In this document: piece after piece, positions 10,175-25,014 of the stretch | How the letters are laid out: every line of letters starts with the position of its first letter | How positions within the stretch are numbered: position 1 is the first letter of the stretch | Origin: Thermoanaerobaculia bacterium | GTDB lineage: Bacteria > Acidobacteriota > Thermoanaerobaculia > Gp7-AA8 | Assembly: GCA_035526885.1 (NCBI GenBank) | Contig: DATLBM010000269.1 | Span: forward strand, 1 to 35,787 | Direction of reading: 5' to 3' | Length of the DNA: 35,787 nt | The notes under the pieces: generated by a model | The model's database searches: none | What the model saw: only the letters and a program-made list of their open reading frames with translations | Told to the model about the DNA's origin: nothing | Program-made: the position numbers and the translations under genes

Positions 10175-10754
10175 CGATCTTCAGCGCCTCGATGTCGTGA
10201 ATGAGCACGTCGTCTCCGGACGGAGTGGGATAGACCGCACCGCACGCGTTGCAGAGAAACTCGGGTGCGGCCAGCGACTCGCCGATGTCGTGCGAGCCGC
10301 ACGTCGTACAGCCGCTCGCGCGCAATGCCTCGAGCGCTTCCGCTTTGCCTTCGACCATGCGCAGGGCCAGGCGGACGAACGTTTGCGTGGTGACCAGGCG
10401 CGCCACCTCGTGCACGCGCAGGCCGGGCGTGAACAGCGCGGGATCGATCTCCGGACGCAGCTCGCGGAGCACGCGCAGTGCGAAGTCGGTGAGCTGGCCC
10501 TGGTGCAGGAACTTCTCTTCGCCGAAGCGCTCCTGCACGTGCTGCATGAGGTTGGTCTTGGGCATGCGGATGCGGAACGCGGTCTCCAGAGCGAACACGA
10601 TCTCGAGGATGTCCAGCGACTCCGCTCCGTAATCTTCCTGCAGGCTGGCGCCGAGCTCGATCTGCTCCGGCGGGAGGTCGAGCGCTCGCGCAACCGCGGC
10701 GACGACCTTGGTCTCGACGTCCTGCTCGATCGTGCTCTGCTGGTCGACTGTCAT
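10167..10754 (-). CDS. acyl carrier protein domain with a long C-terminal extension ending in a CxxC...CxxC zinc-ribbon-like motif
   Basis: ACP helix II region LQEDYGAESLDILEIVFALETAF, with Ser in a DSL-like motif. 195 aa, against about 80 for a plain ACP. C-terminus reads CTTCGSHDIGESLAAPEFLCNACG. 8-bp overlap (ATGACTGA) with the KS start. Confidence 0.7.
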   Translation of the reverse strand: MTVDQQSTIEQDVETKVVAAVARALDLPPEQIELGASLQEDYGAESLDILEIVFALETAFRIRMPKTNLMQHVQERFGEEKFLHQGQLTDFALRVLRELRPEIDPALFTPGLRVHEVARLVTTQTFVRLALRMVEGKAEALEALRASGCTTCGSHDIGESLAAPEFLCNACGAVYPTPSGDDVLIHDIEALKIDD

Positions 10755-10769
10755 GATGTCCCTCTCTGT

Positions 10770-11522
10770 TCAGACTCCGAGTCCGCCGTCGACGGCGAGG
10801 ATTTGTCCGGTGATGTAGGAGGCGTCGTCGGACGCCAGGAATCGCACCGCGGCCGCCACCTCCTCGGCGCGTCCCATGCGCACCATGGGGATGTGATCGG
10901 CGTGGCGCTTGCCGCCGCGCTGCGGGAGATCGGCGAGGAGCTCGGTCTCGATGAGCCCCGGCGCGACGGCGTTCACGCGAATGCCTTTCGCTCCCAGTTC
11001 CACGGCCAGCGAGCGCACCAGCGCGTTGACCGCGCCTTTCGCCGCGGAGTAGCTGGACAGGCCGGGCGATCCGCGATCGGCCGCGAGCGACGACACGCAC
11101 ACGATGCTGCCTCGGCGCGACGTGAGCATCGACGGCAGCGCCGCGCGGATGCACGAGACGGCGCCGAGGAGATTGATGTCGAGCATGCGCTGCCAGTCGG
11201 CGTTCGTCTGCAGCGCGGCGAGATTGGTGAGCACCATGCCCGCATTGCACACGAGGACGTCCAGCGCGCCGAAGCGGCGTTGCGCGAGCTCGACCAGCCG
11301 CGCGGCCTGACCATCGTCGCTGACGTCGGCTGCGAGAATGTCGCACTGCGCTCCGAGGGCCACGGCTTCGGCGGCAGTGTTCTCGGCCGAGGCGCGATCG
11401 CGGCGATAGTTGACGACGACGTTCGCGCCGTGCGCGGCCAGCTCCAGCGTGATGGCGCGGCCGATGCCGCGGCTGCCGCCGGTCACCAGTGCCGTTCGTC
11501 CTTCCAGTCGCCGATCCGCCAA
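10770..11522 (-). CDS. fabG: 3-oxoacyl-ACP reductase (SDR)
   Basis: TGGSRGIG cofactor motif, NAG, S...YSAAK catalytic motif, 250 aa, with FabG-like layout throughout. Confidence 0.9.
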   Translation of the reverse strand: MADRRLEGRTALVTGGSRGIGRAITLELAAHGANVVVNYRRDRASAENTAAEAVALGAQCDILAADVSDDGQAARLVELAQRRFGALDVLVCNAGMVLTNLAALQTNADWQRMLDINLLGAVSCIRAALPSMLTSRRGSIVCVSSLAADRGSPGLSSYSAAKGAVNALVRSLAVELGAKGIRVNAVAPGLIETELLADLPQRGGKRHADHIPMVRMGRAEEVAAAVRFLASDDASYITGQILAVDGGLGV

Positions 11523-11534
11523 CGCGTGTCCTCC

Positions 11535-12287
11535 TCAGGTGGTCAGACTGAAGCCGCCGTCGGCGACGATGGTCTGACCGCGAATCCATGCCGCGGCGGG
11601 ACTGCAGAGAAATGCGACCACGGACGCCAGATCATCAGGCTGTCCGACGCGGCCCGCCGGCGTCCGCGCGACGACCTGCTCGCGCAGGCGCTCGTACTCG
11701 GGATGCATTTTCACCGTGCCGGTCTCGACGAGGCCTCCGCACACGGCGTTGACGTTGATGTTCCGCGGCGCCAGCTCGACGGCGAGGTAGCGCACCATCG
11801 ATTCGATGGCGGCTTTGGCGGCGCCGAGGGCGAGATAGCCGGGAGTGAAGCCGCGGGAGCCGAGACTGCTCAGCGCGACGATGTGGCCGCCGTCCGTCAT
11901 GAGCTGCGCGGCCCGTTGTGCGCCCGCGAGAAACGCGCGCGCGTTGAGATCGATGACGCGCGACCACGTGCGCGGCGTGAGCTCCATGGCCGCGCGAAAC
12001 GACGCGCGCGCGGCGTTGCTGATGAACACGTCGAGGCGCCCGAACCGATCGCCGATCGTGTCGAAGAGCGCGTCCAGCGAATCGAGCTGGCCGACGTCGG
12101 TGACGACGGCACTCGCCTTCACGCCGCGCGACTCGAGCTCCGCGACGGCGTTGCGCGCGGCGTCGTGATCGAGCGAGTAGGCGATGACCACGTGCTCGGG
12201 CCGCTCGTCCGCGAGGCGCATCGCGATGGCGCGTCCGATCCCGCGGGAGCCGCCCGTGACGAGCACGATGCCGCCGTTGACGCTCAT
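11535..12287 (-). CDS. SDR-family enoyl-ACP reductase, FabL-like
   Basis: By my recollection it is collinear with B. subtilis FabL: [77 protein letters not shown]. The start overlaps the dehydratase stop (ATGA). The upstream 411-aa extension of the ORF is a shadow. Confidence 0.8.
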
Positions 12288-12775
12288 GCGCGGGCGGGGG
12301 GCTGCCATGGAGAGGTGAGACGGCGGTACTCCTCGCGGCAGAAGCTCTCCATGACGTTCCGGTCGCCGCCGCCCACCGCGCCGTTCGGATCGAAGAGGAG
12401 CATGAGGGTCATGTCCGCGGACTTGCGCCCGCCATTCGTGACCGTGGCCTTGCACAGCGCGGCTTCGTCGCGGAGTGAATCGATCCGCGTGCGGATCTCC
12501 AGGCGGCTCTTCGGAGCGACGAATTCGCGGAACTTGGCGCCCTCGATCTGTCCGAGAAAGGGAAAGACCCACAGGTCGCGATTGGCCACGAGCGTGGCCT
12601 GCACGAGAAGGCCGGAGAGCTGCGCGCCCATCTCGGTCAGCAGCACGCCGGGCGTGATGGGAAAGGTCGGGAAGTGATCGGCAAACAGCTCCTCGGAGAA
12701 GTCCGTGGACGCGTCCGCGGACGCAGACTCTCCGGGCACGAGCTCGCGAACTCTCTCCAGAAGGCGCCATCGCAT
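12284..12775 (-). CDS. FabZ/FabA-like hotdog-fold 3-hydroxyacyl-ACP dehydratase
   Basis: [22 protein letters not shown] matches the FabZ active-site region (DHFP..P.mPGVL). 163 aa; first gene of the operon. Confidence 0.8.
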
Positions 12776-12812
12776 GAGTAGGATTGGAAGACGCTCTTAC
12801 GATACATCAAGA

Positions 12813-14150
12813 ATGCCTTCCTTCGACACGATCATCGCCGGCGGCGGACTGGCCGGAATCACGACTGCGGTCGCGCTCGCGGACGCGGGGCAGCGCGTGG
12901 CTCTGCTCGAAGCCTCGCCGATTCTCGGTGGCCGCGCCTCGAGCACGATCGACGCGACGACGGGCGATGCGATCGCCATCGGCCCGCACGTGCTTTTTTC
13001 CGAATACGTGAACATGCTGAAGCTCCTGCGGCTCCTCGGCACGGACTCGAAGATCGTCTGGGACGACGAGCGCTTCACGACCGAGGTGAAGGGCACGCAC
13101 GAGATCGTGATGCGGATCTCTTCATGGCTGCCGGCGCCTTTTCACTTCGTGCCCAGTCTCTTTCGGGACAGGACGCTGCGCGCCGCGGACTGGCTGTCCA
13201 ACGCGGGCATCACGCTGTACGCGCTGTCGCTGCGCGAGGCGGATCTGCTGCGGCTCGATGGCATGCGCGGCATCGACCTCGTGCGCCGCTTTCGCGTGCG
13301 GGAGGCCTACGTCGAACGCTTCTGGCGCTACCTCGCGCTGGCGATCGTGAACGTGCCGCTCGAGGAGTGCTCGGCGGCCGCGCTGCTGCGCGCGTACCGG
13401 CGGCTGATCGGCAAACGCGGGTATCGCATCGGCTATCCCGGCGGAGGCCTCGGCGATCTCTTCGCGCCGGCGGCGGAGCGGTTTCTGCGCGAGCGCGGCT
13501 CGGTCGTGCTGACGAACGCACGCGTCGTATCTCTGGATGGGCCATTTCGATTGCAGACCGGCGAGACGTTCGAAGGAAAGTCGTACGTCATCGCGCTGCC
13601 TCCGCCGAAGCTGGAGGCCGTGCCGTACGCGAGCGTGTATCTCTGGTTCGACCGGAAGCTCACACAACGGCGTTTCTGGTCGCGCGTGTATGCGGAGGGC
13701 GATCTCAATCTCGACTTCTACGACTTTTCGAACATCGGAAGCCGCGGCGGCACGTCGCTGATCGGGAGCAACGTCATCGGCGCGGAGCGCATCGGATCGC
13801 TTTCCGATGAGGAGATCGTGAAGCGCACGCTGGAGGAGATCGCGGAGTATCTCCCGCACGCGCGCGATGCGCGCGTCGTGCACTCGGTGGTGCATCGCAT
13901 TCCGATGGCCATTCACGCGGCGGTGCCGGGATCGGAGTCGCGTCGTGCCCGCGAGCTCGAGCCGCGTCCCGGCGTCGTGCTGGCCGGCGACTGGACGCAG
14001 ACGGGACTGCCGCCATCGATGGAGAGCGCGTGCTTTTCCGGATTTCGCGCGGCGGAGATCGTCCTCGGCCGCGACGGCCTGGCGGTGCGGCATCGGGAGC
14101 TGGATTGGGTCGCTTCGCTCCTCGGCGCGCTGACGCGCCGGACGGGCTGA
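12813..14150 (+). CDS. FAD-dependent oxidoreductase of the phytoene-desaturase / amine-oxidase (HpnE-like) family
   Basis: N-terminal dinucleotide fold DTIIAGGGLAGITTAVALADAGQRVALLEASPILGGRA; C-terminal LAGDWT motif. The last codons and the TGA stop lie inside the repeat at 14141-14203. Confidence 0.8.
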   Translation: MPSFDTIIAGGGLAGITTAVALADAGQRVALLEASPILGGRASSTIDATTGDAIAIGPHVLFSEYVNMLKLLRLLGTDSKIVWDDERFTTEVKGTHEIVMRISSWLPAPFHFVPSLFRDRTLRAADWLSNAGITLYALSLREADLLRLDGMRGIDLVRRFRVREAYVERFWRYLALAIVNVPLEECSAAALLRAYRRLIGKRGYRIGYPGGGLGDLFAPAAERFLRERGSVVLTNARVVSLDGPFRLQTGETFEGKSYVIALPPPKLEAVPYASVYLWFDRKLTQRRFWSRVYAEGDLNLDFYDFSNIGSRGGTSLIGSNVIGAERIGSLSDEEIVKRTLEEIAEYLPHARDARVVHSVVHRIPMAIHAAVPGSESRRARELEPRPGVVLAGDWTQTGLPPSMESACFSGFRAAEIVLGRDGLAVRHRELDWVASLLGALTRRTG

Positions 14151-15283: not shown

Positions 15284-16291
15284 TCACGTTCGCGTGATCT
15301 CGCGAATGAGCTCGTCCCATCGCGCGGCGATGTTGGACCAGGCATACCGCGGATCGGTCGCGCGCGCAAACGCGGCGTCGGCCAGACGGCCACGTTCGTC
15401 GCGATCGCGGTAGAGGCGCTCCAGCGCCGCGGCGATGCCTTCCACGGTGACCGTGCGTCCCGCCTTCGTGTAGCGCTCCATCGTGCTCTGCGTTGCGGGA
15501 TCGAGCAGCAACGCCGCGCCTTCCCAGAGCTCGGCGCACGCAGTGTGGTTCGGCACGATCTGCGCGGCACGCGTGGCGCCGTGCTCGAAGGCGATCAGGC
15601 CCCAGCCTTCCTTCTCCGACGTGTTGATGCCCACGTGGCAGGAGTTGTAGATCGCGTTCAGGCGCTCGTCGGAAACGAACGGATGCCGCTCGCCCTTTTC
15701 CGTGAAGACGATGCGGTCGCGGATGCCGAAGCGATCCGCCAGCGGGACCTCGCCCGGATGCGGCGTGCGCGTGCCCATGTGCAGCACGAGCTTCACGTTC
15801 TCCGGCTTGCCGCGCGCGAACAGGGCGAAGCCTTCGACGGTGAGGTCGATGCGTTTGAACGGCTGATTGCGATTGGCGTTGAGGACGAAAAAGGCGTCGT
15901 CGTCGCGCGTGCCGGCGGGGTGGAAGGCATTCGTGTCGACGCCGTGCGGAATGACAGCGTGTGCGTTGGCGATCGCGCGGCCGAAATCCGTGAATGCCAC
16001 CACGCGGTCCGCCTTGGCCAGCTCCGCCGCGATCTCCGGCGTCACCGACTCTTCGCCGTCGGCGGCAGCGTAGAAGATGGTCGGGTACGTGCCGCACAAC
16101 CGCGGTGCGAGTTGCGCGCAGCGCCACGGCTCGTCCAGTACGAGCACGAGCTCCGGCGCGATGGCGGCGATGTCCGCGTCCGATGCATCGATGGGGAGGC
16201 GCGCCACGCGGCGGGGAAGATGCGGGGCGATGCTGTCGAGCACGCGGGCGAATCCCGTGGGAATGCCCGCGTGCCCGAGGAAGAGGATCAC
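15284..16291 (-). CDS. GT-B fold glycosyltransferase (GT4-like)
   Basis: EKEGWGLIAFEHGATRAAQIV (E-x7-E region) and VILFLGHAGIPTGFARVL at the N-terminus. GTG 16291 overlaps the stop of the 304-aa gene (GTGA). The upstream part of the 481-aa ORF is a shadow. Confidence 0.8.
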   Translation of the reverse strand: MILFLGHAGIPTGFARVLDSIAPHLPRRVARLPIDASDADIAAIAPELVLVLDEPWRCAQLAPRLCGTYPTIFYAAADGEESVTPEIAAELAKADRVVAFTDFGRAIANAHAVIPHGVDTNAFHPAGTRDDDAFFVLNANRNQPFKRIDLTVEGFALFARGKPENVKLVLHMGTRTPHPGEVPLADRFGIRDRIVFTEKGERHPFVSDERLNAIYNSCHVGINTSEKEGWGLIAFEHGATRAAQIVPNHTACAELWEGAALLLDPATQSTMERYTKAGRTVTVEGIAAALERLYRDRDERGRLADAAFARATDPRYAWSNIAARWDELIREITRT

Positions 16292-17202
16292 GCGATGGCG
16301 AAGGTGGCCTGATCGAACGGGTACATCCGATTGGCCTTGAGGTATCCGTCGATGACGTTCGTGAGCAGGTTGCTGATCATCTGCAGGTTGCCGGGCGCAT
16401 TCAGCGTGGCATTGATCGAGTTGATGACCGATGACCGCGCCTGCGCGCTGTTGAACGCCTTCATGGCCATGTTGCTGTACGACTGCGGGTTCGCGCCTTT
16501 GGGAATGCTGGTGATGTTGATATTCACCTGCATGCCCGGTGAGCCGTCCTTGTACGCGGCCGGGAAGAAATTCACGGCCGTGACGGCGAGAGTGAGCACT
16601 CCCGGCGCGAGGTTGGTGATGGTGAAGTCGAGATTGCAGTAGCCGCTCTGCACCGCGCCCAGGGCCGGGTCGGGCATCGTGGCCGTGAAGTTGCCGTTGC
16701 CGGTCTCCGGCGTGGCCGGTTTCGAGCACGTCTTCTGGTCATTGCTGCAGCAGCAGTAGTTGACGAACGTCCAGTCGCCCTTGATGGTGATGGGTTTGGG
16801 GAAGGTGTTCAGCGTGCCGAAGTCCGCGCGCGTCTTGACCTTCATTCCATCGGGCGGCTGGGCGATGGGACGCGCCAGCACCGCGTTGGCCAGTCCGCCG
16901 ATCAGCCCGCCGACGATGTTCAGCGTCGGGTAGTACGGCGGGATGGTGGCGGTGATGTAGCTGGCCACGTCGCCGCACGGCGAGTCCACGACGTCGATGC
17001 TGGCGCAGATCGGCGCCGCCGCTTCCAGCATCCCCGGATCCGTGAGCTGGCCCAGATCCCAGCCGAACGGACCGTACGGGTCGTACTTGTTCTTCAGAAT
17101 GAAGTTCGGGAGGTACCAGTCGCCGGAATTGGGGTCGTTCAGTTTCGGGTACAGACCATCCATGATCTGCTGGATGTACTCCTGCATCGTGATGCCGGCC
17201 AT
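16288..17202 (-). CDS. hypothetical protein, 304 aa, no recognised family; layout reminiscent of a BPI/TULIP-type domain
   Basis: AGGAGG lies 5 nt upstream of the ATG. GC3 is high. Arg-poor and Asn/Ser/Thr-rich. Cys cluster NYCCCSNDQKTCSKP. No N-terminal signal peptide or TM segment is visible. Confidence 0.7.
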   Translation of the reverse strand: MAGITMQEYIQQIMDGLYPKLNDPNSGDWYLPNFILKNKYDPYGPFGWDLGQLTDPGMLEAAAPICASIDVVDSPCGDVASYITATIPPYYPTLNIVGGLIGGLANAVLARPIAQPPDGMKVKTRADFGTLNTFPKPITIKGDWTFVNYCCCSNDQKTCSKPATPETGNGNFTATMPDPALGAVQSGYCNLDFTITNLAPGVLTLAVTAVNFFPAAYKDGSPGMQVNINITSIPKGANPQSYSNMAMKAFNSAQARSSVINSINATLNAPGNLQMISNLLTNVIDGYLKANRMYPFDQATFAIA

Positions 17203-17211
17203 GAAACCCTC

Positions 17212-19854
17212 CTACGCGTTCAGTGCGGTCAGGAACTCGGAATAGCTCAGGTTGCGATACTGCTCGAGCTTCGGCAGGAGCTCGGCCGCCGAGGCTTGCA
17301 GGGTGGGACTTCCTTGCGCGGATGCGTTCTGCAGCAGCGCCATGAACGACGGGACGAACTCCTGGCTGCCCCCGCCGCTGACGCTCTCGTTCATGGAGTG
17401 CCGTTGGGCGCGCATGGCCGGCTCGATCTCGTCGCGGTTGAGATAGTAGTGGTAGAGCACTTCCTGTCCCTTCGGCGTGTCGAGCAGGTCGGCCATGAAG
17501 GCGGGATGCGTGCGCGCCGAGGCCGAGGTGAACGACGGGCTGAGCGCGGAGTTGCCGCTCTCGACGCCGCACACCGCCAGCAGCGCGTCGATGACGCTGG
17601 TGGCGAGATTCCACGCGTCCTGGAGCAGCATGCCGAAGAACGCGGCCACTTTCTCCGCGATCTCGGCGATGGCCAGCCCGATCTGATAGAGCAGCTTGAT
17701 GAGCGCTTCGGCCGCCTGCAGGAAGATCTCCAGAATGGCCTTGGCGTTGTTGAGGATGAGGTTCTTGAGGAACGCCCCGAAATCGGAGAACGCGTTGGTG
17801 ATGTCCGAGAGCTGCAGATTGAGCGACAGATTGAAGCTGAGTGAGCCCCACGAGAAGGAGAGCTTGGCCGACACGTACGGCGCCGAGGTGGGCATGAAGC
17901 CGCCGCAGAGCGGCTGGCTCGGAACGATGGTCCCGAAGGCGAAGCAGACGGCGACCTTCGGCGTGGGAATCGTGAACTGCGGAATGGGGCCCCACGGTCC
18001 GAGAGTGATGTCGGGCGGCGAGAAGGAGCAATCCACGGACGCCGCGAAGTCGCCTTTGTCCGGGATGAACTCGCAATGCATCTTGTCGCTGAAGATGTTG
18101 CCCGCGCCGAGGGTCACGTCGAACTCGAAGGAGTCGCTCGAGGCCACGACGTACACCGAGGAGCTGAGGAACCCGAGCAGCGAGATGGCCGCGTTCATGA
18201 CGAAGTACGCGTTCGACACTCCCGGCGCCTGGCAGTAGCCGCCCGATCCGGTGGTGTCGATGCAGGCCGAGGGTCCCTTCGTGCCGGTGACGTCGGAGAG
18301 CTTGAGGAGCTGCACGCCTCCGGCGCTGACGACGATCGGACCGCCGTTCTGGCTGATCGATCCCTTGGCCTGCACGGCCGTCTGCGGCGAGGTGATGAGC
18401 GAGAACGCGAAGTCGAGGTCGTAGCCGAAGAAGTTGATGTCGCCTGTCGCGCCGACGCCGGGCTGGTAGGTCTTGCCCTGGTAGAGGATCGGCGCGGCCA
18501 CCGCGAAGAACTCGAGATCGGTGAAGGAGATGTCGTTCAGCAGCGGGAAGTTGTTCAGGTTCAGCGAGGGGATGAAGTCGGTGATGAGGTTGGCCAGCGT
18601 GACGGACTTGCCGGCGTCCGACGGAGCGAGCTTGGCGTAGACGAAGCTGGGCGCCTCGAAGTCGAGGATGGCCGTGGCCACCGAGAGGTTGACGGGATTG
18701 GGCTGGCCGGTGCCGATCTGGATCGTGCCGCCCAGTCCGATGGCGATGCCCTCGGCGCTCAACCCAAGGCTGATGGACACGCTGAGGATGGTCAGGTTCT
18801 GGATGCCGAAGGGATGGGTCCACGAGCCGGTGCCGCTGATCGTGAGCTCGACGTTCAGGCTGGGCGTGCTGCCGTACGTGAAGCTGCCCTCTCCGCCGAG
18901 CGTCAGCGTCTCGCTCGCCGAGATGTTGAACAGGGCGTTGATGGTGATGTCGATCTCGCCGGAGCTCGCGGAGGTGGATTTCCACGCCAGCGAGAACTCC
19001 TGGAAGTTGAACGCGTTCGTGGACTTCGGCTCGGTGAGCGTGGCCACCACGCTCGCGCCGGCGATGCTGCCGCCGAGAGGGAGGTTCGCGAGGAGGCTGA
19101 GGGTCGTGCCCGCGGGGAAGAAGTCCTCCAGCGGTGCGAGCGTTCCGCCCTTCAACTGAATGGCGGCCAGGAACGTCAGTCCGCTGCTGATCTTCTTCGG
19201 CAGGTACGGAAGGTTCAGGCTCTTGAACGCGCTGAGATCGGTGAGGTCGATCGTCGAAACGAACACGCCCGTCTCGCCCACGATGGTGAGCGTGCCCACC
19301 ACCGGCCACTTCGAGCCCGGTGACCAGCTTCCCGTGAGAATGAACCCGCCGCCGATGCCGAGCTTCGAGGACGCGTACTTGACGACCAGGAGGCCGGTGC
19401 CGATGGGCGTGTTGTCGAGGCTCGTGGTGGCGTTGAGATCGAGCTCGTACGACTGGTCGCCGGGGTTGACGGCCAGCGCCGCGCTGCCGCTGGAGACGGT
19501 CAGGCTCGTGAATGGGTAGGTGTTCAGCACCGACGGCCACGCGTTCGACACGGGCCATGCGGAGGTGAAGCTCGCGTTGAAGTTCATCGTGACGTTGTCG
19601 TTCGTCGCGGTGAAGAGCGCGGTCGCGTCCCACTGGCTGAGCAGCGGCGCGGCGTTGCCGCTGCCCGTGATCTTGGCCGTGGCGCTGTCGCCGGTGAGCG
19701 CGAACGTCACGCCGTTCAGCTGCATGCTGCCGGTGAACAGATTCTCGATGGCGCCGCCGATCGCGGAGCCGAAGGAGTTGCCGATCGTCGACGGGATGTT
19801 GATGGACTTGCCGTCGCCGCTGACGTATCCCTGGAGTGTGCCTTTGACGTCCAT
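17212..19854 (-). CDS. hypothetical protein, 880 aa, beta-rich body with a helical C-terminal region; no recognised family
   Basis: AAGGAG lies 6 nt upstream of the ATG. Third positions are nearly all G/C, yet very few Arg occur. The protein is rich in Gly/Ser/Thr/Asn/Leu with a strand-like alternating pattern. C-terminal amphipathic helices: LKNLILNNAKAILEIFLQAAEALIKLLYQIGLAIAEIAEKVAAFF. Confidence 0.75.
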   Translation of the reverse strand: MDVKGTLQGYVSGDGKSINIPSTIGNSFGSAIGGAIENLFTGSMQLNGVTFALTGDSATAKITGSGNAAPLLSQWDATALFTATNDNVTMNFNASFTSAWPVSNAWPSVLNTYPFTSLTVSSGSAALAVNPGDQSYELDLNATTSLDNTPIGTGLLVVKYASSKLGIGGGFILTGSWSPGSKWPVVGTLTIVGETGVFVSTIDLTDLSAFKSLNLPYLPKKISSGLTFLAAIQLKGGTLAPLEDFFPAGTTLSLLANLPLGGSIAGASVVATLTEPKSTNAFNFQEFSLAWKSTSASSGEIDITINALFNISASETLTLGGEGSFTYGSTPSLNVELTISGTGSWTHPFGIQNLTILSVSISLGLSAEGIAIGLGGTIQIGTGQPNPVNLSVATAILDFEAPSFVYAKLAPSDAGKSVTLANLITDFIPSLNLNNFPLLNDISFTDLEFFAVAAPILYQGKTYQPGVGATGDINFFGYDLDFAFSLITSPQTAVQAKGSISQNGGPIVVSAGGVQLLKLSDVTGTKGPSACIDTTGSGGYCQAPGVSNAYFVMNAAISLLGFLSSSVYVVASSDSFEFDVTLGAGNIFSDKMHCEFIPDKGDFAASVDCSFSPPDITLGPWGPIPQFTIPTPKVAVCFAFGTIVPSQPLCGGFMPTSAPYVSAKLSFSWGSLSFNLSLNLQLSDITNAFSDFGAFLKNLILNNAKAILEIFLQAAEALIKLLYQIGLAIAEIAEKVAAFFGMLLQDAWNLATSVIDALLAVCGVESGNSALSPSFTSASARTHPAFMADLLDTPKGQEVLYHYYLNRDEIEPAMRAQRHSMNESVSGGGSQEFVPSFMALLQNASAQGSPTLQASAAELLPKLEQYRNLSYSEFLTALNA

Positions 19855-19869
19855 GTTGGTCTCCTTGCG

Positions 19870-21168
19870 TCAGGCGTTCGACTTGATCGCGGCGGTGAGC
19901 AGGGCCCCGAGGTAGGCGAGGAAGCTCGACTCGTTGAGGGCGGCCAGGACGCGCTGCCCGAGCACGCCCTTCAGGAAATTCGCGCGCTCGAGAGCGTTGT
20001 CGACTTCCGCATGCAGGTTCCCCGGGAACGCTCCCAGCTTCACCCGCACCTCGGGCGGCGCACCGCTGACGCTCGCCAGCGTCACCTTCGGCCCGCCGGC
20101 GTCCTGGGTGATCGTGCCGCTGACGGTGAGCGGCTGCGTGCCGAAGTACGAGAGGAACTCGCCGTCGATGGGACGGCCCGTGTTCTCGCGCAGGAGCACG
20201 CCGGCGCGCACGTCTTCCTCTTCCTTCTCGATCTCGGCGATGGCGATGGCCAGGTCATCACGCATCTGCGTGTCGAGGTACGGGGAGATGATCAGGTCCG
20301 CGGGCGGCACGGCCCCTTTTCTCAGCAGCACGGTCGAGGGAGGCTGCGAGGTATTGACCTTGTTCATCACGCCGTTCACGTTCGGCGTGGCCGAGACGGT
20401 GGGGCCCGAGTTGGACTGGAACTCCGAGGCCGCGTTGGCGGCGTCGGCGTTCTGCTGCGCGTTGCACGTGGCCACCACGAGCGTGTTCATGAAGAACGCG
20501 TGCGGGTTGTAGTCCGGATCGCCGTTGACCGGGGGACCGCCCGGATTGTTCGCGGCCCCGGCCGTCTGCTTGGCGAAAACGGCGGTGGTCTTGCCGTTGG
20601 TCTGGTAGTTCTGCCACCGCGCCACGTACTTGGAGTTCTGGTAGCACTGCGAGTAGGCGTCGTTGTACTGGTAGTACGTCGAGAGCATGAACCGGCCGCT
20701 GTCGGAGGTGGTGAGCTGGTTCTGGTACGCCTTCGCCGCGGCGATGTTGGAGTCATCGCCGGGCTCTCCCGACGCGCCGGCGTCGCTTCGCAGCGACTCG
20801 AACGCGGTGCGCATCGCCGAGGCGCTGGCGCGCCCGCGCCGCAGCGTGTACTTGCCGGAGTACTTCAGCTCAGGGAAGCGGATCGTGCCGGTGAAGGCCC
20901 CCGTCGCCTCGTCGAAGGTGAAGTCGTCACCCGTGATGGTGTCGAGGTTCTGGACCTCGTTCTCGTAGAGGTTCACGTCGACGCTGCCCCACGGCTCGTG
21001 ATTGAGAAGCACGACGGGGCCGGTGGGCTTGAAGGTCAGGACGGGCATGCGCCGGTGACGGTGGCGCGCGGACGGAGAGCCCGCCACCTTTGCGGAGAGG
21101 AACGGATTCGTGTCTTGCCAGAGGGAACGCCATGCGGCGGCTACTCGTGAGCCGAGGGGAGAAGCCAT
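19870..21168 (-). CDS. hypothetical protein, 432 aa, no recognised family
   Basis: AAGGAG lies 6 nt upstream of ATG 21168; the track start at 21228 has no RBS. Gln/Asn/Ala/Thr-rich central region. 15-bp gap to the next gene. Confidence 0.7.
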   Translation of the reverse strand: MASPLGSRVAAAWRSLWQDTNPFLSAKVAGSPSARHRHRRMPVLTFKPTGPVVLLNHEPWGSVDVNLYENEVQNLDTITGDDFTFDEATGAFTGTIRFPELKYSGKYTLRRGRASASAMRTAFESLRSDAGASGEPGDDSNIAAAKAYQNQLTTSDSGRFMLSTYYQYNDAYSQCYQNSKYVARWQNYQTNGKTTAVFAKQTAGAANNPGGPPVNGDPDYNPHAFFMNTLVVATCNAQQNADAANAASEFQSNSGPTVSATPNVNGVMNKVNTSQPPSTVLLRKGAVPPADLIISPYLDTQMRDDLAIAIAEIEKEEEDVRAGVLLRENTGRPIDGEFLSYFGTQPLTVSGTITQDAGGPKVTLASVSGAPPEVRVKLGAFPGNLHAEVDNALERANFLKGVLGQRVLAALNESSFLAYLGALLTAAIKSNA

Positions 21169-21296: not shown

Positions 21297-22313
21297 GTGT
21301 CCGATCCAGTCCATGAAGCACGCGCCCTCGTCGCCGGAGATCTGGCGCGTTTCGAGTCCACTCTCACCGCGGCGCTCGTGCCGCAGGCGCCGTACCTTTC
21401 CGAGACGGAGTACGAGACCTACCGGCGCGGAAAAAAACTGCGCCCGCTGATCCTGCTGCTCTCCAGCCGCCTCTGCGCCGGGGCCGAGGGCGAGCTGCCG
21501 CAGAAGGCGATCAACGCGTCGGTGTCGCTGGAGATGCTGCACGTGGCCACGCTGATCCACGACGACATCGTGGACGTCGCGCCGATGCGCCGCGGCCTGC
21601 GCACGGTGTACTCGGAGCGCGGCACGGAGATGGCGGTGCTGATCGGCGACCTGCAGTTCATCCAGGCGGTGCGCTGCTTCGCCGAGGGGATCGAGACGAA
21701 GGACGACATGCGCCTGGTGAACGAGGTGCTCAACGTCGGCTTCCAGATCTGCTGCGGAGAGCTGGACGAGATCATGACCGACCCCACGCTCGATGCGGAG
21801 GCGCTGGAGAAGCGCTACATGCAGACGGTGAATCGCAAGACCGCGGCGCTGTTCGCGCTGGCGTGCGAGTCGGGCGCGCTGCTCGCGGGCGGATCGAAGT
21901 CGCAGGCCTTTCACCTCAGCCAGTTCGGGCGCCGCTTCGGCGTGGCGTTCCAGATCATGGACGACGTCTTCGACTTCGTGCGTCCTGAGGCGTTGTCGGG
22001 CAAGGCGCCGGGCAAGGACCTGGAGCAGGGGCGCGTGACGCTGCCGCTGATCTACGCGCTGCCGGAGCTCGGCGCGGAGCATCCGGCGCAGCGCATGATG
22101 CGCCGCGAGACGTTCACGCACGCGGAGCTCGATCGCACGGTGCACGACGTCACGCAGTCGGACGGCATGCTGCGCGCGTACTCGAAGGCCCGGAAGATCA
22201 CGCTGGAGGCGGTGGACTTCCTGTCGTGGTTCCCGCAGTCCCCGTACCGCGACGCGCTGCTGGCGATGTCGCACTACATCATCGACCGCGGGTTTCTGTC
22301 GCCGGAGGCGTGA
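21297..22313 (+). CDS. trans-polyprenyl diphosphate synthase (class I isoprenoid synthase)
   Basis: GKKLRPLILL, first aspartate-rich motif LIHDDIVD, second motif FQIMDDVFD, and GKAPGKDLEQGRVTLP. Confidence 0.9.
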   Translation: MSDPVHEARALVAGDLARFESTLTAALVPQAPYLSETEYETYRRGKKLRPLILLLSSRLCAGAEGELPQKAINASVSLEMLHVATLIHDDIVDVAPMRRGLRTVYSERGTEMAVLIGDLQFIQAVRCFAEGIETKDDMRLVNEVLNVGFQICCGELDEIMTDPTLDAEALEKRYMQTVNRKTAALFALACESGALLAGGSKSQAFHLSQFGRRFGVAFQIMDDVFDFVRPEALSGKAPGKDLEQGRVTLPLIYALPELGAEHPAQRMMRRETFTHAELDRTVHDVTQSDGMLRAYSKARKITLEAVDFLSWFPQSPYRDALLAMSHYIIDRGFLSPEA

Positions 22314-23278
22314 GGCCGCGCGTCATCGTCGCTCAGAATTTCGAATGCTGCGCGATGGCGTGTGACCAGCGTTCGCGCCGGTTCGCCTTTGCGAACGATC
22401 GAAAATTGTGCGCTGGCGAGCTTCGTGTTCAGACAGATTTTTTCGCCGCCCGGCGGATTTTGATACCGCAGTCCGACGAACGCGCTCATCGGCGCCTCGA
22501 TCCGGCCCGATACGCGGACGTCCCGCGTTCGCGCTTCGATCGTCCAGGCGAAGGAGCGAACCTCGGCCGCCGTGCGCAGCGCCCGAAACAGTCCGTTGAG
22601 CGCGATCTCACGGCCCTGATCGCGCAACACCAGAAAGGTCAGCCGCGGGCTCCACACCGGACCGATCCTGATCTGTGCGGTCGCACATTCGAGAAACGAC
22701 TCGGGAGCGTTGTCAAAGCCGGCCACCTGCCCCCACGCGTATCGATCGGTGTGCTGGGTGCCCCAGTTGTGATTCTGGCTGCCTCTCCACTCCTGCACCG
22801 GCACGCTCACTCCGTCGATCACGAGGCTGCCCGTGTATCGAGCGTCTGGTGCGCCAACCAAAACCTTCGCCTTGGGAAAGCGTTTCGAATAGAGCTCCGC
22901 CGGCAGCAGGAGCAAGGGAGGCTCGGCGCTTTCATAGCGCAAGGCCCACTCGAACGTGTGCGACGGCGATGCAGCGCGACCGTGAAGCTCGCCGTCCCGC
23001 AGAACGGCGTCCCGGATGCGAACATCGAGCCGCAACGGCGAGAAATGACATTCGGCGATCGGCAGCGCTTCCTGGACAGCCACGATCTCGCCGCGCTCAC
23101 CATCGAAATAGATCGCCCAGAGCTCGCCGCGGGCCAGGTCCGGACGTTGCCGTGGCGAGAAGACCGTGTAGCGAATCCAGAATGCCAGGGGACGCGAAGG
23201 ATGGTTGGCGCGCTGGAAGTAGCTCTCGTAAAAGCCGGCAGCATCTTCGGGTCGAAACCTCGACGCATTCCAGTCCAC
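22274..23278 (-). CDS. hypothetical protein, tocopherol-cyclase-like / CrtC-like fold suspected
   Basis: Only the C-terminal 334 aa of the 1176-aa ORF look coding; GTG at 23278. FYESYFQRANHP..RPLAFWIRYTVF and WRGSQNHNWG...RYAWGQV resemble the FEGWYFR and EKNWG motifs of tocopherol cyclases. It overlaps the 3' end of the convergent synthase gene by 40 bp. Confidence 0.5.
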   Translation of the reverse strand: MDWNASRFRPEDAAGFYESYFQRANHPSRPLAFWIRYTVFSPRQRPDLARGELWAIYFDGERGEIVAVQEALPIAECHFSPLRLDVRIRDAVLRDGELHGRAASPSHTFEWALRYESAEPPLLLLPAELYSKRFPKAKVLVGAPDARYTGSLVIDGVSVPVQEWRGSQNHNWGTQHTDRYAWGQVAGFDNAPESFLECATAQIRIGPVWSPRLTFLVLRDQGREIALNGLFRALRTAAEVRSFAWTIEARTRDVRVSGRIEAPMSAFVGLRYQNPPGGEKICLNTKLASAQFSIVRKGEPARTLVTRHRAAFEILSDDDARPHASGDRNPRSMM

Positions 23279-23289
23279 GTTGGGTTGAC

Positions 23290-25014
23290 CTACGTCAGGC
23301 GCGCGAGCATCGCCAGCTCGCCGGACTCGTCGCCGCCCAGCGATCGGAAAAGCGTCGTCCACTTCTGGCGCAGCGCGCCCTGCAGCGGCGGCATGCGCAT
23401 GCGCGCGGGATTCGGGAATCCCGCCTCGCGCAGCGCGCGCGTGAGCGAGCGCTCGTTGAAGAACTGGTAATGCGCGACGGGATTCACCGCGTCCCACTCC
23501 TTGCCGAAGATCCGGAACTGCCACGACTCGCTGTCCGGCACGGCCAGGTACAGAACGCCGCCGGGGTTGAGCGCCTGCGCGATCTGGCGCAGCGCGGCGT
23601 TCGGATCGCCGAGGTGCTCGAGGACGTGCGTCATGACGATGGCGTCGAACGAGCCCCAGGGCAGGAGGTCGCTGCCGAGATGCGCCACGGCCAGATGCGA
23701 GCCGAACATCGCGTCCAGCTCCGCCGTGCGCGCGCGCGAGGTCTCCACGCCGTACACCTGGAAGCCGTGCGCGCGCGCGGTGCGCAGCAGGTACCCGGAG
23801 CCGTAGCCGATGTCGAGCAGCCGCGGTCCGGGCGCGTGCTTGCGCAGCAGGCGGCACAGATAGTCCGCATAGATTTTCTGCGTCTGCAGAAATCCATCCT
23901 CGGACGCATCGAGCTCCTCGCCGAGGCGCTTCTGCACTTCCGGCTTCACGCGCGGGCTCACGTAGATGTGCGCGCACGTCGCGCAGCGGTGGTAGTCGAA
24001 GCGGTGCTTGCGGAAGATGGTGGCGTCGTTGCGCGCGCCGCATACGGGGCAGTCGACGGTCTCGAATGCGTCGTCGCCGAGGCGATCGCGAAAGTCGTTC
24101 GAGTTGGAGTGCCAGAAGAGATGCAGCGCCTCGGCCGGATCGGGAAGCGGTGCGGGAGTGAAGAGGCTTTCGATCTCCGCCTTCGTTTCGTCGAGCTTGG
24201 CCAGCGCGATGGCGCGGGCGGAGTCGTCGAGCGCGTCCGCCATCTCCTGCAGCGCGGCGACGTCTTTGCCGATGACGGAGCGGACGTCGTCGCCGAAGAT
24301 CGCGGCGATGTTCGGCCGCGACTGCTCGGCATCGCGCTCGCGGTCCTGCAGGTCGTTCACCTTCTGCGCGAGCGCGTAGTAGCGGCGCAGGAACGGATAG
24401 AGCGGCGACTGCAATTCGGGATCGAGAGCGGCGTAGAGGATGCGCCAGTACTCGACGTTCTTCAGCTCCACGAGCCGCTCGTAAAACTCGGGCGACCAGT
24501 CCTCGCGCGGGCTGCGCTCCATGAGGATGCCGGCCAGGAGAGCGCGTGCGGCATCGATGATCGCGGCCGTCTGCGCGCCGGCGCGCGCGTGCTGCAAGCC
24601 CTCGAAGCAGAGCAGGAGGGCCATCACGACGGTGAGCGATTCCGCCTCCGGCCCGCCGCCCTCGCGCGCCAGCGTGGCCAGCAGCGTCTCGCGGCGGCCG
24701 CGGTAGAGGAAGTGGCGATCGAGGTAATCGTCGAGCAGGCGGCCGGCGAAGTAGATCAACACGCTGGCCGAGAGATCGGCGCGAAAGCGCTCCTCGTCGG
24801 GCTGGATGACGACGGCGAGCTGCGGCAGGTCCCAGGTAGTCCAGCTCAGCCAGTGCAGGTAGTCCGCGGTCTTGTCCGCGAGGGCTCGCGTGGAAGGGTT
24901 GCCGCCGGACACGAGGTCGATGTTGCGGCGCATGCGCTCGATGGCGTCGACGACCGCGCCCGTAACGATGGCGCGATAGCGCTCCTCGATGGTCTCGGCG
25001 GCGGTGACGGTCAT
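23290..25014 (-). CDS. two-domain protein: N-terminal all-helical isoprenoid-synthase-like domain fused to a zinc-ribbon plus class I SAM methyltransferase
   Basis: ATG 25014 overlaps the upstream stop (ATGA). N-terminal RLLDDYLD (DDxxD) and VNDLQDRERD (NSE/DTE-like). Then CPVCG...CATC, LLDIGYGSGYL (motif I) and LNPGGVLYLAVPD. Confidence 0.7.
   Translation of the reverse strand: MTVTAAETIEERYRAIVTGAVVDAIERMRRNIDLVSGGNPSTRALADKTADYLHWLSWTTWDLPQLAVVIQPDEERFRADLSASVLIYFAGRLLDDYLDRHFLYRGRRETLLATLAREGGGPEAESLTVVMALLLCFEGLQHARAGAQTAAIIDAARALLAGILMERSPREDWSPEFYERLVELKNVEYWRILYAALDPELQSPLYPFLRRYYALAQKVNDLQDRERDAEQSRPNIAAIFGDDVRSVIGKDVAALQEMADALDDSARAIALAKLDETKAEIESLFTPAPLPDPAEALHLFWHSNSNDFRDRLGDDAFETVDCPVCGARNDATIFRKHRFDYHRCATCAHIYVSPRVKPEVQKRLGEELDASEDGFLQTQKIYADYLCRLLRKHAPGPRLLDIGYGSGYLLRTARAHGFQVYGVETSRARTAELDAMFGSHLAVAHLGSDLLPWGSFDAIVMTHVLEHLGDPNAALRQIAQALNPGGVLYLAVPDSESWQFRIFGKEWDAVNPVAHYQFFNERSLTRALREAGFPNPARMRMPPLQGALRQKWTTLFRSLGGDESGELAMLARLT

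Follow-up and report, generated by a model that had tools for sequence, protein, structure and literature searches.

Three contiguous genes on the minus strand of the window (the whole stretch of 35,787 nucleotides analyzed here) encode proteins that resemble no familiar family, and the question is what these proteins are and what they do in their gene cluster. The ORF listing of the window assigns 432, 880, and 304 residues to the products of genes A (19870–21168, counted from ATG), B (17212–19854), and C (16288–17202), respectively. Each start codon is preceded by a Shine-Dalgarno sequence: AAGGAG at 21180–21175 for A (6-nt spacer, ATG at 21168), AAGGAG at 19866–19861 for B (6-nt spacer, ATG at 19854), and AGGAGG at 17213–17208 for C (5-nt spacer, ATG at 17202). 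The stop codon of A (TGA) ends at 19870, 15 bp from B; that of B (TAG, 17214–17212) lies 9 bp from C; and that of C (TGA, 16290–16288) overlaps the GTG (16291–16289) of a downstream glycosyltransferase-like gene. No terminator-like sites were found on the minus strand in the operon interior. The initial annotation had described this three-gene coupling, and its gaps, Shine-Dalgarno sites, and stop/start overlap all proved exact. The NCBI annotation of A comprises 392 residues, 40 codons fewer than the 432-residue ORF. Because the first 40 residues are conserved among homologues (M1, W13, and W17 are invariant), we consider the longer start to be right.

All three genes are real and conserved. 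Measured against a homologue that is 82–87% identical, A and B have dN/dS values of 0.23 and 0.16, respectively, as expected for expressed genes under constraint. The third-position GC content of the trio (0.89–0.93) matches that of the neighbors (0.81–0.93), whereas the amino acid composition deviates strongly. Arg accounts for 0.6% of B, 1.3% of C, and 5.1% of A, compared with 7.7 to 13.3% in the neighbors, and Asn for 5.3 to 8.6%, compared with 1.2 to 3.3%; overall, the three proteins are low in Arg and Glu and high in Asn, Ser, Thr, and Gly. The remaining conserved proteins of the cluster show no such bias. Sequence checks of A, B, and C revealed no signal peptide, hydrophobic N terminus, or TM-grade segment, and searches with the three proteins against Pfam, NCBIfam, PHROGs, and PDB sequences returned no family match, no Pfam threshold being reached. 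On composition, codon-position GC, absence of export or membrane signals, and lack of a recognizable family, the initial annotation was thus confirmed.

The clearest relationship emerged for C, which consists of one putative JHBP/Takeout-like (TULIP) domain with insertions and Cys-rich loops. C has 17 close homologues, and its family comprises 151 representative clusters at 50% identity. Relatives of about 550 residues (540–580) contain two C domains in tandem (first versus second domain, E = 1.3e-25) and are referred to here as double-C proteins. Window C itself has no Pfam JHBP match. Of 67 double-C proteins, 17 match Pfam JHBP with their second domain; the top score is 35.2 bits, above the cut-off of 29.2 (E = 9.4e-9; profile positions 43–232 of 239), and residues 13 to 291 of window C align to such a JHBP-positive domain with an hhalign probability of 99.5% (E = 2.5e-22). 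When compared with all PDB sequences, the double-C profile retrieved only 9ink (Takeout, E = 0.025) and 1bp1 (BPI, E = 0.59). These profile comparisons place C in the TULIP/JHBP superfamily, and the TULIP reading that had been made by eye is upheld through the link to a domain with scores above the JHBP threshold. The domain carries a conserved Cys cluster, CCCSxDxxxC (residues 150–159; 16726–16755, minus strand). The invariant Cys of C are C66, C76, C150, and C152; conservation is at least 90% at C151 and C159. The double-C consensus retains two Cys of this cluster; the Saccharothrix homologue of C lacks the cluster and has one Cys.

Gene A is predicted to encode a related fold that is split by an insertion. 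Its 21 homologues show a mean column identity of 62%, and its AF2 model has a pLDDT of 73, with block values of 77 to 91 for residues 41 to 110. In the model, residues 44 to 112 (20833–21039, minus strand) form the N-terminal half of a TULIP sheet with six strands, and residues 334 to 430 (19879–20169, minus strand) supply the C-terminal half, with three strands and C-terminal helices. Between them lies an all-helical insert of 215 residues (116–330; 20179–20823, minus strand), in which numerous polar positions are invariant (Y148, Q149, Y165, Y166, N169, Y172, N178, H223, and C235) and for which no similarity to the C family was found. Residues 62 to 109 weakly match positions 74 to 121 of the Pfam JHBP profile (13.5 bits, below threshold), a match that recurs in six of the 21 A members and in a distant homologue (L019); it coincides with the motif TGTIRFPELKYSGKYTL, which the initial annotation had likened by eye to JHBP/Takeout. 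The C-terminal half aligns with the C family (hhalign, E = 6e-4), and A from which the insert has been deleted aligns across the junction with a C-type domain (probability 88%, E = 2.8e-6). Foldseek searches with the model yielded TULIP proteins for 26 of the 35 best hits, headed by the locust β-carotene-binding protein (probability 0.98) and including Bombyx and Galleria JHBP, Takeout 1, BPIFA1, Der f 7, BPI, LBP, and CETP, at E values of at least 0.011 and target-normalized TM scores of 0.35 to 0.45. This retrieval supports the earlier TULIP reading of A, whose modeled fold is JHBP/Takeout/BPI-like. By profile comparison and model, A and C are two very divergent TULIP paralogues with insect JHBP/Takeout as nearest kin, i.e., remote relatives of the insect juvenile-hormone and carotenoid carrier proteins.

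Gene B, with 40 homologues, is of a different kind. Its AF2 model (pLDDT 77, pTM 0.50) shows an amphipathic β meander followed by a helical bundle. Residues 43 to 681 (17812–19728, minus strand) form about 40 antiparallel strands, of which 32 have at least six residues, typically 8 to 14, according to DSSP of the model. Over these 32 strands, one face consists of 72% Leu, Ala, Phe, Val, and Ile, and the other of 52% Ser, Thr, Gly, and Asn with few charges. We looked for internal sequence repeats in B and found none. The C-terminal part (residues 682–880; 17215–17811, minus strand) is a predicted bundle of amphipathic helices that contains a LYHYYL motif and the invariant C762; its sequence matches only designed helical bundles (E of at least 0.03). 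Two further Cys, C531 and C541, are almost invariant among B homologues. A conserved Cys pair sits in the short loop CIDTTGSGGYC, and the Cys motifs pointed out earlier proved genuine and conserved in both B and C. None of the best 50 PDB and BFVD hits of B had a query-normalized TM score above 0.14. The best local Foldseek similarities, which are weak, were to LptD and to the ApoB-100 belt (9ea7, E = 8.5e-5; 9e9r, E = 8.4e-4), with TM scores of about 0.12, indicating a generic β-meander likeness only. The 37 B members scanned gave no Pfam hit, AsmA/TamB/Chorein included. B is recognizable neither as the AsmA/TamB-like or VPS13-like protein that had been suggested for comparison nor as a TULIP protein.

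Conservation of the three genes as a unit, for which the initial annotation had suggested a test, was borne out: outside the window, 16 separate places contain all of A, B, and C (L001–L003, L005–L012, L014, L016, L017, L020, and L023; L004 duplicates L003, and L015 duplicates L002). In four more contigs (L013, which is cut, L018, L019, and L022), the set is incomplete or its support weak. The loci span 36 to 73% GC and include Acidobacteriota, Enhygromyxa, and Saccharothrix texasensis, with diverged forms in Saccharothrix and in lineages of 36 to 44% GC. FAS and PKS genes, originally suggested as neighbors to test for, vary across loci; the constant partner is a trans-polyprenyl diphosphate synthase. 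In the window, the synthase gene (21297–22313, plus strand; Pfam polyprenyl_synt, E = 6.6e-56) is divergent from A at a distance of 128 bp. Its best NCBIfam matches, all below cut-off, are to HepT, solanesyl-PP synthase, and encapsulin-cargo polyprenyl transferase. FPP synthase and CrtE-type GGPP synthase are less similar to it than medium- and long-chain enzymes such as HepT and solanesyl-PP synthase. In the genome scan, a synthase adjoins the trio in every one of the 11 species-level loci for which the contig extends to the synthase side (L007–L010, L012, L014–L017, L023, and the window), four other contigs ending too early. Of the seven metagenome places, six likewise have it next to the trio (L001, L003/L004, L005, L006, L019, and L022), the exception being L020. 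The synthase gene overlaps or abuts C in L006, L019, L022, and L023, and in one protein (P0226) a synthase (residues 44–283) is fused to a C domain (residues 347–603).

The fourth gene of the operon (15284–16291, minus strand) is GT-B-type glycosyltransferase-like and comes after C in every Acidobacteriota and Enhygromyxa locus. Its overlap with C stands as first described, whereas the label GT4 is weak, all GT1/GT4 matches being below the Pfam cut-offs (Glycos_transf_1, 22.9 bits versus 26.4). The tailoring enzymes of the cluster comprise two glycosyltransferases, a methyltransferase whose N-terminal domain is unassigned, a carbamoyltransferase, and an acyl-AMP ligase. Nine proteins of the 12-gene conserved core (all but those of C, GT4, and the AMP-ligase) were checked for TM segments, and none was found. 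An ABC-2 permease-like gene is located at 57–1049.

We propose that the trio is a soluble isoprenoid-binding and hand-over module partnered with the adjacent synthase, a reading to which we assign a probability of roughly 0.55. The lipid held would probably be an isoprenoid made by the surrounding gene cluster, and the pathway served is best read as one for a terpenoid glycolipid. A lipid pathway made up of soluble proteins only needs a hydrophobic sink. We expect A and C each to accommodate a long hydrophobic chain in a tube-shaped pocket, by analogy with Takeout, which holds ubiquinone-8, and the locust protein, which holds β-carotene. With its very large one-sided hydrophobic sheet surface and its helical bundle, B may serve as a scaffold, reservoir, or conduit. 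In this scheme, A, B, and C would together receive from the synthase its water-insoluble prenyl product, or else a subsequent terpenoid glycolipid, maintain it in solution, and offer it to the tailoring enzymes of the cluster, which are soluble; storage or delivery of the product is also conceivable. The idea of a carrier for the product of the cluster, raised at the outset, fits the conserved synteny. We infer the identity of the ligand, the cytoplasmic location, and the role of B, the latter being a guess because B has no informative relative; a physical A–B–C complex is suggested by the operon structure only. What the locus adds is bacterial counterparts, in C and A, of a known lipid-carrier fold, along with a protein, B, that has no close structural neighbor among its best 50 PDB and BFVD hits.

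A different possibility, which we regard as unlikely, is that A, B, and C act outside the cell as a lipid-binding or toxin-helper complex in the style of clostridial OrfX/P47. Having no Sec signal, they would be exported or released through lysis, in vesicles, or by an unlinked exporter, and would bind or deliver the glycolipid of the cluster or lipids of a host or prey. To our knowledge, OrfX/P47 proteins have no signal peptides either. The composition of the trio is typical of extracellular proteins, the conserved Cys pairs in short loops (CIDTTGSGGYC in B, CCCSxDxxxC in C) look like disulfides, and the permease-like gene could be invoked as well. An Arg- and Glu-poor composition rich in Asn, Ser, Thr, and Gly is an extracellular sign by rule of thumb. 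Such a composition and short Cys–Cys loops, both commoner in extracellular than in cytoplasmic proteins, also speak against the hand-over module. OrfX/P47 are likewise multi-gene TULIP sets (PMC6791001; PMC7020563). However, PF06597 was found neither in single-protein scans of A, B, and C nor among the 25 families matched most often by the members of each protein family, and the best 50 Foldseek hits of A and B include no P47 or OrfX2 structure; membership in OrfX/P47 is not supported, and the check proposed earlier uncovered no specific resemblance in sequence or structure. The toxin-like complex of the initial annotation did not hold up: nothing toxin-like lies beside the trio in any locus, and the conserved core contains no toxin, secretion-system, or lysis gene. 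The constant neighbors are cytoplasmic biosynthetic enzymes, one relative is fused to a polyprenyl synthase, and the putative disulfide cluster is missing from the Saccharothrix homologue of C.

Two readings stay closer to the synthase. In one, which strikes us as rather improbable, the trio would be the coat of a storage particle, B wrapping a droplet of polyisoprenoid or terpenoid glycolipid much as the ApoB/lipophorin belt or rubber-particle proteins might, while A and C load and unload it. The hydrophobic strand face of B opposite an uncharged polar one, the ApoB-100 belt among its best local similarities, and the absence of membrane proteins among the pathway members checked are consistent with this idea, as is the presence of B in the same cluster as the synthase in every case, although directly adjacent only in L006. 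The TM score of about 0.12 and the pTM of 0.50 argue against it, as does the gene ratio of one copy each, which is unexpected for an abundant coat protein, and we know of no inclusion bodies in these taxa. The other reading, that the trio is catalytic or regulatory, seems to us very unlikely; for example, the insert of A might be a new terpenoid-modifying active site, or the TULIP parts might be accessory subunits that set chain length, in the role of HepS toward HepT. The window synthase scores best against heptaprenyl diphosphate synthase component II, which works only with a non-catalytic partner, and both the invariant polar residues of the A insert and the synthase–C fusion could be taken in this sense. 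Yet the trio has no enzyme-family match, the 640-residue sheet of B has no obvious catalytic rationale, and every TULIP domain characterized binds ligands rather than catalyzing reactions (PMC6791001).

Compared with known systems, A and C are most like insect JHBP/Takeout (PF06585; 9ink, Epiphyas Takeout 1), with which they appear to share a single TULIP domain that comprises a helix at the N terminus, a curved antiparallel sheet, and one or more long C-terminal helices. The insect ligands (juvenile hormone, ubiquinone-8, and β-carotene) are isoprenoid, relatives of C pass the PF06585 threshold, and the A model retrieves JHBP/Takeout structures first. Unlike the secreted insect proteins, window A and C are bacterial and have no signal peptide; A scores 13.5 bits against JHBP and C has no match; A has the helical insert and C is about 70 residues longer, with the CCC motif; and for both, the operon also encodes a synthase and the giant partner B. 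The tandem TULIP-type domains of the 540- to 580-residue C relatives recall the double TULIP of BPI/LBP/CETP, BPI being one of the two PDB hits, but the suggested check against PF01273 and PF02886 gave no sequence match, and the TULIP units are split here into genes A and C. Bdellovibrio TipA and its adaptor TipB are a bacterial TULIP protein and an operon-encoded partner that opens it, TipA being an invasion-associated protein of a periplasmic predator (bioRxiv 10.1101/2025.09.09.675085); TipB is a small β sandwich, whereas B has 880 residues, and no TipA-like invasion role is indicated for the trio. The clostridial OrfX1–3/P47 operons are likewise multi-gene TULIP operons, matching no further than the superfamily level, but accompany neurotoxin or insecticidal toxin genes (PMC7020563) rather than a polyprenyl synthase and tailoring enzymes. 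YceB/DUF1439, DUF4403, DUF2140, and DUF2993 are also bacterial TULIP families detected by remote homology only; YceB and DUF4403 are extracytoplasmic in diderms, on short linkers from membrane anchors, and DUF2140 is extracytoplasmic in monoderms (PMC6791001). The trio has no Pfam match to these four, which are not reported beside isoprenoid synthases. B shares long antiparallel runs with one hydrophobic face with the ApoB-100 belt, the LptD/Lpt bridge, and AsmA/TamB-type sheets, but lacks a signal peptide, TM anchor, outer-membrane β signal, and sequence repeats, and ends, unlike these, in a helical bundle of about 190 residues. In HepS/HepT, in the hexaprenyl-PP synthase subunits, and with the “polyprenyl carrier protein” that aids solanesyl-PP synthase, a catalytic polyprenyl_synt subunit requires or benefits from a non-catalytic protein that makes room for the hydrophobic product. 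The accessory proteins described here are unrelated to HepS, much larger, and three in number, and stand beside a synthase that is nearest HepT.

The three genes A, B, and C lie on the minus strand at 19870..21168, 17212..19854, and 16288..17202, and encode ORFs of 432, 880, and 304 residues, respectively. ORF calling returned the positions proposed in the initial annotation, and the tight coupling claimed there is visible at every junction: the genes are separated by 15 bp (A–B) and 9 bp (B–C), Shine-Dalgarno sequences precede A and B (AAGGAG, 6 nt, ATG) and C (AGGAGG, 5 nt, ATG), and the stop codon of C shares bases with the start of the next gene in a GTGA overlap. The Shine-Dalgarno of C itself overlaps the TAG stop of B, and the coding strand of the operon contains no terminator-like site. 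The product of the downstream gene, previously called a GT4, does match GT-B families, but all matches are below the Pfam cut-offs. All three genes are in the same frame, parted by single stops and 9 to 15 nt, both in the window (16288..21168) and in L001, the locus of the closest homologue (8681..13348). Fusion by stop-codon read-through was considered and rejected; the shared frame is missing in two other homologous loci, L002 and L003, and is therefore probably a coincidence rather than a sign of programmed read-through.

In GenBank, where the contig is a Thermoanaerobaculia MAG, the three products are all annotated as “hypothetical,” and that of A has 392 residues. A homologues of 429 to 456 residues span the full 432-residue reading, and the N-terminus is conserved in the homologue alignment, with W13 and W17 invariant. 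Judged from these sequences, the GenBank start, which lies 40 codons downstream of the conserved one, is too late.

The third codon positions are as native-like as had been claimed (GC3 of 0.89, 0.93, and 0.90 for A, B, and C versus 0.81–0.93 for the neighbors), and the odd amino acid composition was confirmed, with Arg contents of 5.1%, 0.6%, and 1.3% versus 7.7 to 13.3% in neighboring proteins. Asn is high (6.9%, 5.3%, and 8.6% versus 1.2–3.3%). The remaining conserved cluster proteins, with or without a Pfam match, are ordinary in composition. Relative to an 82 to 87% identical homologue, dN/dS was 0.23 for A, 0.16 for B, and 0.15 for the neighboring GT. Hydropathy analysis revealed neither a signal peptide nor a TM segment in the three proteins, as expected from the first reading; the highest 19-residue Kyte–Doolittle windows are internal (1.37 in A and 1.58 in C), the N-termini are not hydrophobic, and the aligned N-termini of A and C homologues contain no signal peptide. 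The statement that no family is recognizable also stands, as neither single sequences nor profiles gave a significant match to Pfam, NCBIfam, PHROGs, or PDB sequences. The sole lead from direct searches was a match of A residues 62 to 109 to Pfam JHBP (PF06585) with 13.5 bits (E = 0.041), below the gathering score of 29.2 bits.

PF06585 had no match in window C in Pfam scans; the only proteins to reach its threshold are remote relatives of C, for example P0183 (35.2 bits, E = 9.4e-9, profile positions 43–232 of 239). The intermediate step is provided by relatives of 540 to 580 residues (double-C proteins), which are tandem duplications of the C domain (first domain, d1, versus second domain, d2: E = 1.3e-25). 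Of 67 members, 17 have a Pfam JHBP match in d2 (E ≤ 0.1), and no other family recurs. In profile–profile comparisons, the C family aligned with JHBP-positive d2 over C residues 13 to 291 (probability 99.5%, E = 2.5e-22). A double-C profile searched against 177,635 distinct PDB sequences retrieved only two matches, both TULIP proteins, namely the locust Takeout-family carotene-binding protein (E = 0.025) and BPI (E = 0.59). Because of the profile link to JHBP-positive d2 and the TULIP-only PDB matches, we place C in the JHBP/Takeout branch of the TULIP superfamily, of which it is, by these comparisons, a remote member that itself falls below the Pfam threshold. Some Terriglobia-type loci carry three tandem paralogous C genes (L005, 11379..16980; L009, 8255..11183; L012, 9980..15591).

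The weak JHBP match of A recurs at identical profile positions in 6 of 21 A-family members and in one very distant homologue. The AF2 model of A (pLDDT 73, pTM 0.54) comprises an N-terminal helix, six strands (residues 44–112), an all-helical insert (116–330), three strands (334–368), and C-terminal helices (385–430). A Foldseek search of the PDB with this model gave no match below E = 1e-3 (E ≥ 0.011, target-normalized TM 0.35–0.45), and TULIP proteins made up 26 of the top 35 matches. These included 9ink, the structure of the locust Takeout-family protein (probability 0.98), Bombyx and Galleria JHBP (target-normalized TM up to 0.45), Takeout 1, BPIFA1, Der f 7, LBP (E = 0.84), and CETP (E = 1.3). 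With the insert deleted, A aligned with d1 of the double-C proteins, a C-type domain, across the junction (probability 88%, E = 2.8e-6) and with JHBP-positive d2 (64%, E = 6.4e-5). Hence, based on the model matches, the recurrent JHBP match, and the insert-deleted alignment, A is read as a predicted TULIP domain into which a helical segment is inserted, and as a distant paralogue of C.

B has no detectable homology to A or C, no internal sequence repeats, and no Pfam signal among 37 members of its family. Its AF2 model (pLDDT 77, pTM 0.50) begins with a short helical segment, continues with about 40 antiparallel strands (residues 43–681), and ends in a bundle of helices (190 residues). In strands of six residues or more (32 in all), one face is 72% L/A/F/V/I and the opposite face is 52% S/T/G/N, with few charges. 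Foldseek searches against the PDB and BFVD found at most a generic beta meander, with LptD and the ApoB-100 belt on top (TM ∼0.12) and porins and phage tail fibers as other weak matches (TM ∼0.1); AsmA/TamB/VPS13-type structures were absent from these lists. B may be a new fold. An outer-membrane barrel, an RHS or Tc cocoon, a tail fiber, and an AsmA/TamB protein were each considered and rejected, given the helical C-terminus and the lack of a signal peptide, anchor, or repeats. An LptD-like barrel in particular would not end in a helical bundle or lack a signal peptide, as B does. The 37-member Pfam scan gave no Chorein-N, AsmA, or DUF490 signature, and no TM or signal segment that would form an N-terminal membrane anchor was seen. 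A double-glycine leader was discarded as well, the GG not being conserved. In L005 and L012, B is split into genes of 685 and 213 codons.

Word-indexed searches recovered 22 relatives for A, 40 for B, and 18 for C, and no Pfam domain was present in any of them. A pattern scan for B in one genome per species (185,579 species) located at least 11 loci, a lower bound since the scan depends on three peptide patterns. Ten of these are from Acidobacteriota (Terriglobia MAGs, a Granulicella sapmiensis MAG, Terracidiphilus, Bryobacteraceae, and the cultured Acidobacteriaceae bacterium KBS 96), and the remaining one is from an Enhygromyxa MAG. Where the contig is long enough, a GT4 gene comes first, followed by three genes without a Pfam match, the methyltransferase gene (N-terminal domain unassigned), and that for the polyprenyl synthase; then come A, B, one to three copies of C, a GT-like gene, and DUF4185. 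On the upstream side of the Enhygromyxa locus, the three no-Pfam genes are missing, and a methyltransferase, GT4, reductase, AMP-ligase, and carbamoyltransferase precede the synthase. Variable additions to the clusters are KS-CLF, ACP, KR, and FabA (FAS-like), an HpnE-like oxidase, the AMP-ligase, and the carbamoyltransferase.

A HMMER search with the C profile extended the family to 151 representative clusters at 50% identity. Distant contexts with an A-like gene, polyprenyl synthase, C or tandem-C, and a B-like gene (1167–1360 aa) were found in the actinomycete Saccharothrix texasensis, one of two cultured carriers of the module (the other is strain KBS 96), and on contigs with GC contents of 44% and 71%. 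The diverged S. texasensis module (L023; RJKM01000001.1, 55396..77066) contains genes for proteins of 322 and 124 residues, an A-like protein (419), the synthase (350), a double-C protein (556), a B-like protein (1167), and a 422-residue protein. A P450 and a gene with faint squalene-hopene-cyclase-like matches lie ∼4 kb upstream of this module, with one GH97 gene in between. The nonenzymatic module proteins are Arg-poor (0–4.7%) except the A-like one (7.6%), and the synthase has 12.6% Arg. In locus L020 (66% GC), A-like, tandem-C, and B-like genes are present and a synthase was not detected. In L018 (36% GC), the synthase is fused to C, a 1329-residue protein matches the B-like proteins, and an A-like gene was not found. 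The one fusion recorded, P0226, unites the synthase and a C domain in one polypeptide. Stand-alone small Peptidase_C39_2/C70-like proteins occur 4 to 7 kb from module genes in distant, mutually unrelated loci (L019, 430..1017; L022, 14302..14877), and L022 also carries a DsbA/Rv2466c-like gene.

The recurrence of the synthase across loci and its fusion to C identify it, therefore, as the constant partner of the trio, rather than the FAS/PKS genes that had been expected in this role. A link to aryl-polyene or FAS genes as the core partner was rejected, as KS-CLF, ACP, KR, and FabA are missing from several loci. A carotenoid pathway was also dismissed; no phytoene/squalene synthase family was found, and the HpnE-like oxidase scores below its cut-off and is not universal.

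In the window, the synthase gene (21297..22313, plus strand) is divergent from A and matches PF00348 with 189.7 bits (cut-off 27). The IHDDIVD in its translation is presumably the first Asp-rich motif. All NCBIfam equivalogs score below cut-off, with heptaprenyl (HepT) and solanesyl-PP synthase best, ahead of FPP synthase and CrtE-type GGPP synthase. The third-best NCBIfam match, with a score far below cut-off, is [quoted passage not shown]; among the window genes scanned for families and those listed for related loci, none was assigned to an encapsulin-like family. No TM segments were found in the nine proteins checked of the 12 conserved core genes (all except C, GT4, and the AMP-ligase). 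The 574-residue methyltransferase (23290..25014, minus strand) has an N-terminal domain of ∼350 residues without a Pfam match, in which LLDDYLDR and NDLQDRERDAE resemble both metal-binding motifs of class I terpene synthases. The protein is kept in all Acidobacteriota and Enhygromyxa loci and, going by its sequence, may be a terpene synthase–methyltransferase fusion. Two no-family genes of ∼238 and ∼508 codons (27337..28053 and 25814..27340, minus strand) gave phmmer matches in the Acidobacteriota loci that reach that side and not in Enhygromyxa; a third of ∼281 codons (within 25011..26036, minus strand) is placed there only because genes were called at the corresponding position in L001, L003, and L005. 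These three have no Pfam or NCBIfam family, an ordinary composition, and no TM segments. Between the synthase and the methyltransferase lies a no-family ORF of 332 residues (22274..23272, minus strand) without a counterpart in the other loci examined. An 891-residue protein (5250..7925, minus strand) combining an alpha/beta hydrolase, a partial AMP-binding domain, a PCP, and a thioesterase, and the adjoining 800-residue fused KS-CLF-like protein (7772..10174, minus strand) are part of the cluster's FAS/PKS-like arm, which is variable. A LexA-like repressor (HTH and Peptidase_S24; 1914..2597, minus strand) is encoded outside the cluster, near the left end of the window.

Juvenile hormone is the isoprenoid cargo of characterized JHBP proteins, and beta-carotene is the ligand of 9ink. 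For Takeout 1, ubiquinone-8 is the cargo according to what PMC6791001 relates from its reference 43. Isoprenoid-binding relatives, the link to the synthase, and the absence of TM segments from the checked core proteins make a carrier function the most economical reading, to which we assign a probability of roughly 0.55: the trio would be an isoprenoid-binding and hand-over module that, with the synthase, keeps an intermediate soluble. A and C would take up a hydrophobic prenyl chain or a later glycosylated terpenoid, and B could supply a large hydrophobic surface as a scaffold, reservoir, or conduit, presumably within a cytoplasmic complex, so that the intermediate would stay accessible to the GTs, the methyltransferase, and other tailoring enzymes. 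Of the elements of this reading, gene structure, synteny, the synthase fusion, TULIP homology, and amphipathic architecture count as shown, and the ligand, complex, location, and role of B are inferred.

A bolder version of this carrier function, which we regard as doubtful, would make the trio a cytoplasmic lipoprotein-like machine of a kind unknown in bacteria, in which the B sheet (640 residues, hydrophobic on one side) is a new fold that wraps or channels a long-chain polyprenyl lipid, and two Takeout-like TULIP proteins load this lipid directly off a dedicated polyprenyl synthase. It would imply an ancient, multiphylum system in which a very hydrophobic isoprenoid is both made and handled wholly off the membrane and, possibly, a bacterial root of arthropod JHBP/Takeout. 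From the amphipathicity of B and its weak similarity to ApoB alone, one could also propose the coat of a storage particle, a stronger form of the main idea that seems improbable. A released complex of the OrfX/P47 type, to which the extracellular-type composition and short Cys–Cys loops would be suited, is likewise unlikely. The P47 family suggested for checking (PF06597) appeared neither in the single-protein scans of A, B, and C nor, when family members were scanned, among the 25 families matched most often in each case; no P47/OrfX2 structure is among the top 50 PDB Foldseek matches of the A or B model, and no export genes were found. Contrary to the proposed toxin-like context, the neighborhoods contain no toxin genes but polyprenyl synthase, GT, methyltransferase, DUF4185, and FAS-like genes, and the fusion with the synthase also speaks against release. 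A catalytic or chain-length-setting role, for which the insert of A with its many invariant polar residues is a candidate, is very unlikely.

What is new here is a Takeout-like bacterial family that lacks export signals, has a genetic link (in one case also a physical one) to a polyprenyl diphosphate synthase, and is joined to a protein of 880 to 1360 residues without recognizable relatives. If the carrier function is correct, it would explain how an insoluble product can be handled by a lipid pathway composed of soluble enzymes only, at least 150 uncharacterized protein clusters would gain a function, and B would become a candidate for a new lipid-handling fold. The module may also help to solubilize long isoprenoids in engineered strains.

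The TULIP reading of the initial annotation holds for A and C, by profile and model, but not in its OrfX, toxin, and FAS-neighbor elements, and the BPI/LBP/CETP families suggested for comparison (PF01273/PF02886) had no sequence match in the scans. TULIP carriers of the JHBP/Takeout type count as arthropod proteins; they are secreted with a signal peptide, which window A and C lack. Known bacterial TULIP families are P47, OrfX2, YceB, DUF4403, DUF2140, and DUF2993 (PMC6791001), of which the last four are envelope-located and P47/OrfX2 are toxin-linked (Levine 2019, PMC6791001). A more recent bacterial TULIP protein is Bdellovibrio TipA, with its adaptor TipB (bioRxiv 10.1101/2025.09.09.675085). 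Our literature search found nothing relevant on this cluster or on bacterial Takeout-like proteins beside prenyl synthases. Unlike A and C, none of the listed bacterial families, TipA included, is Takeout-like, signal-less, and synthase-linked; we regard A and C as new families that belong to a known superfamily but have diverged strongly.
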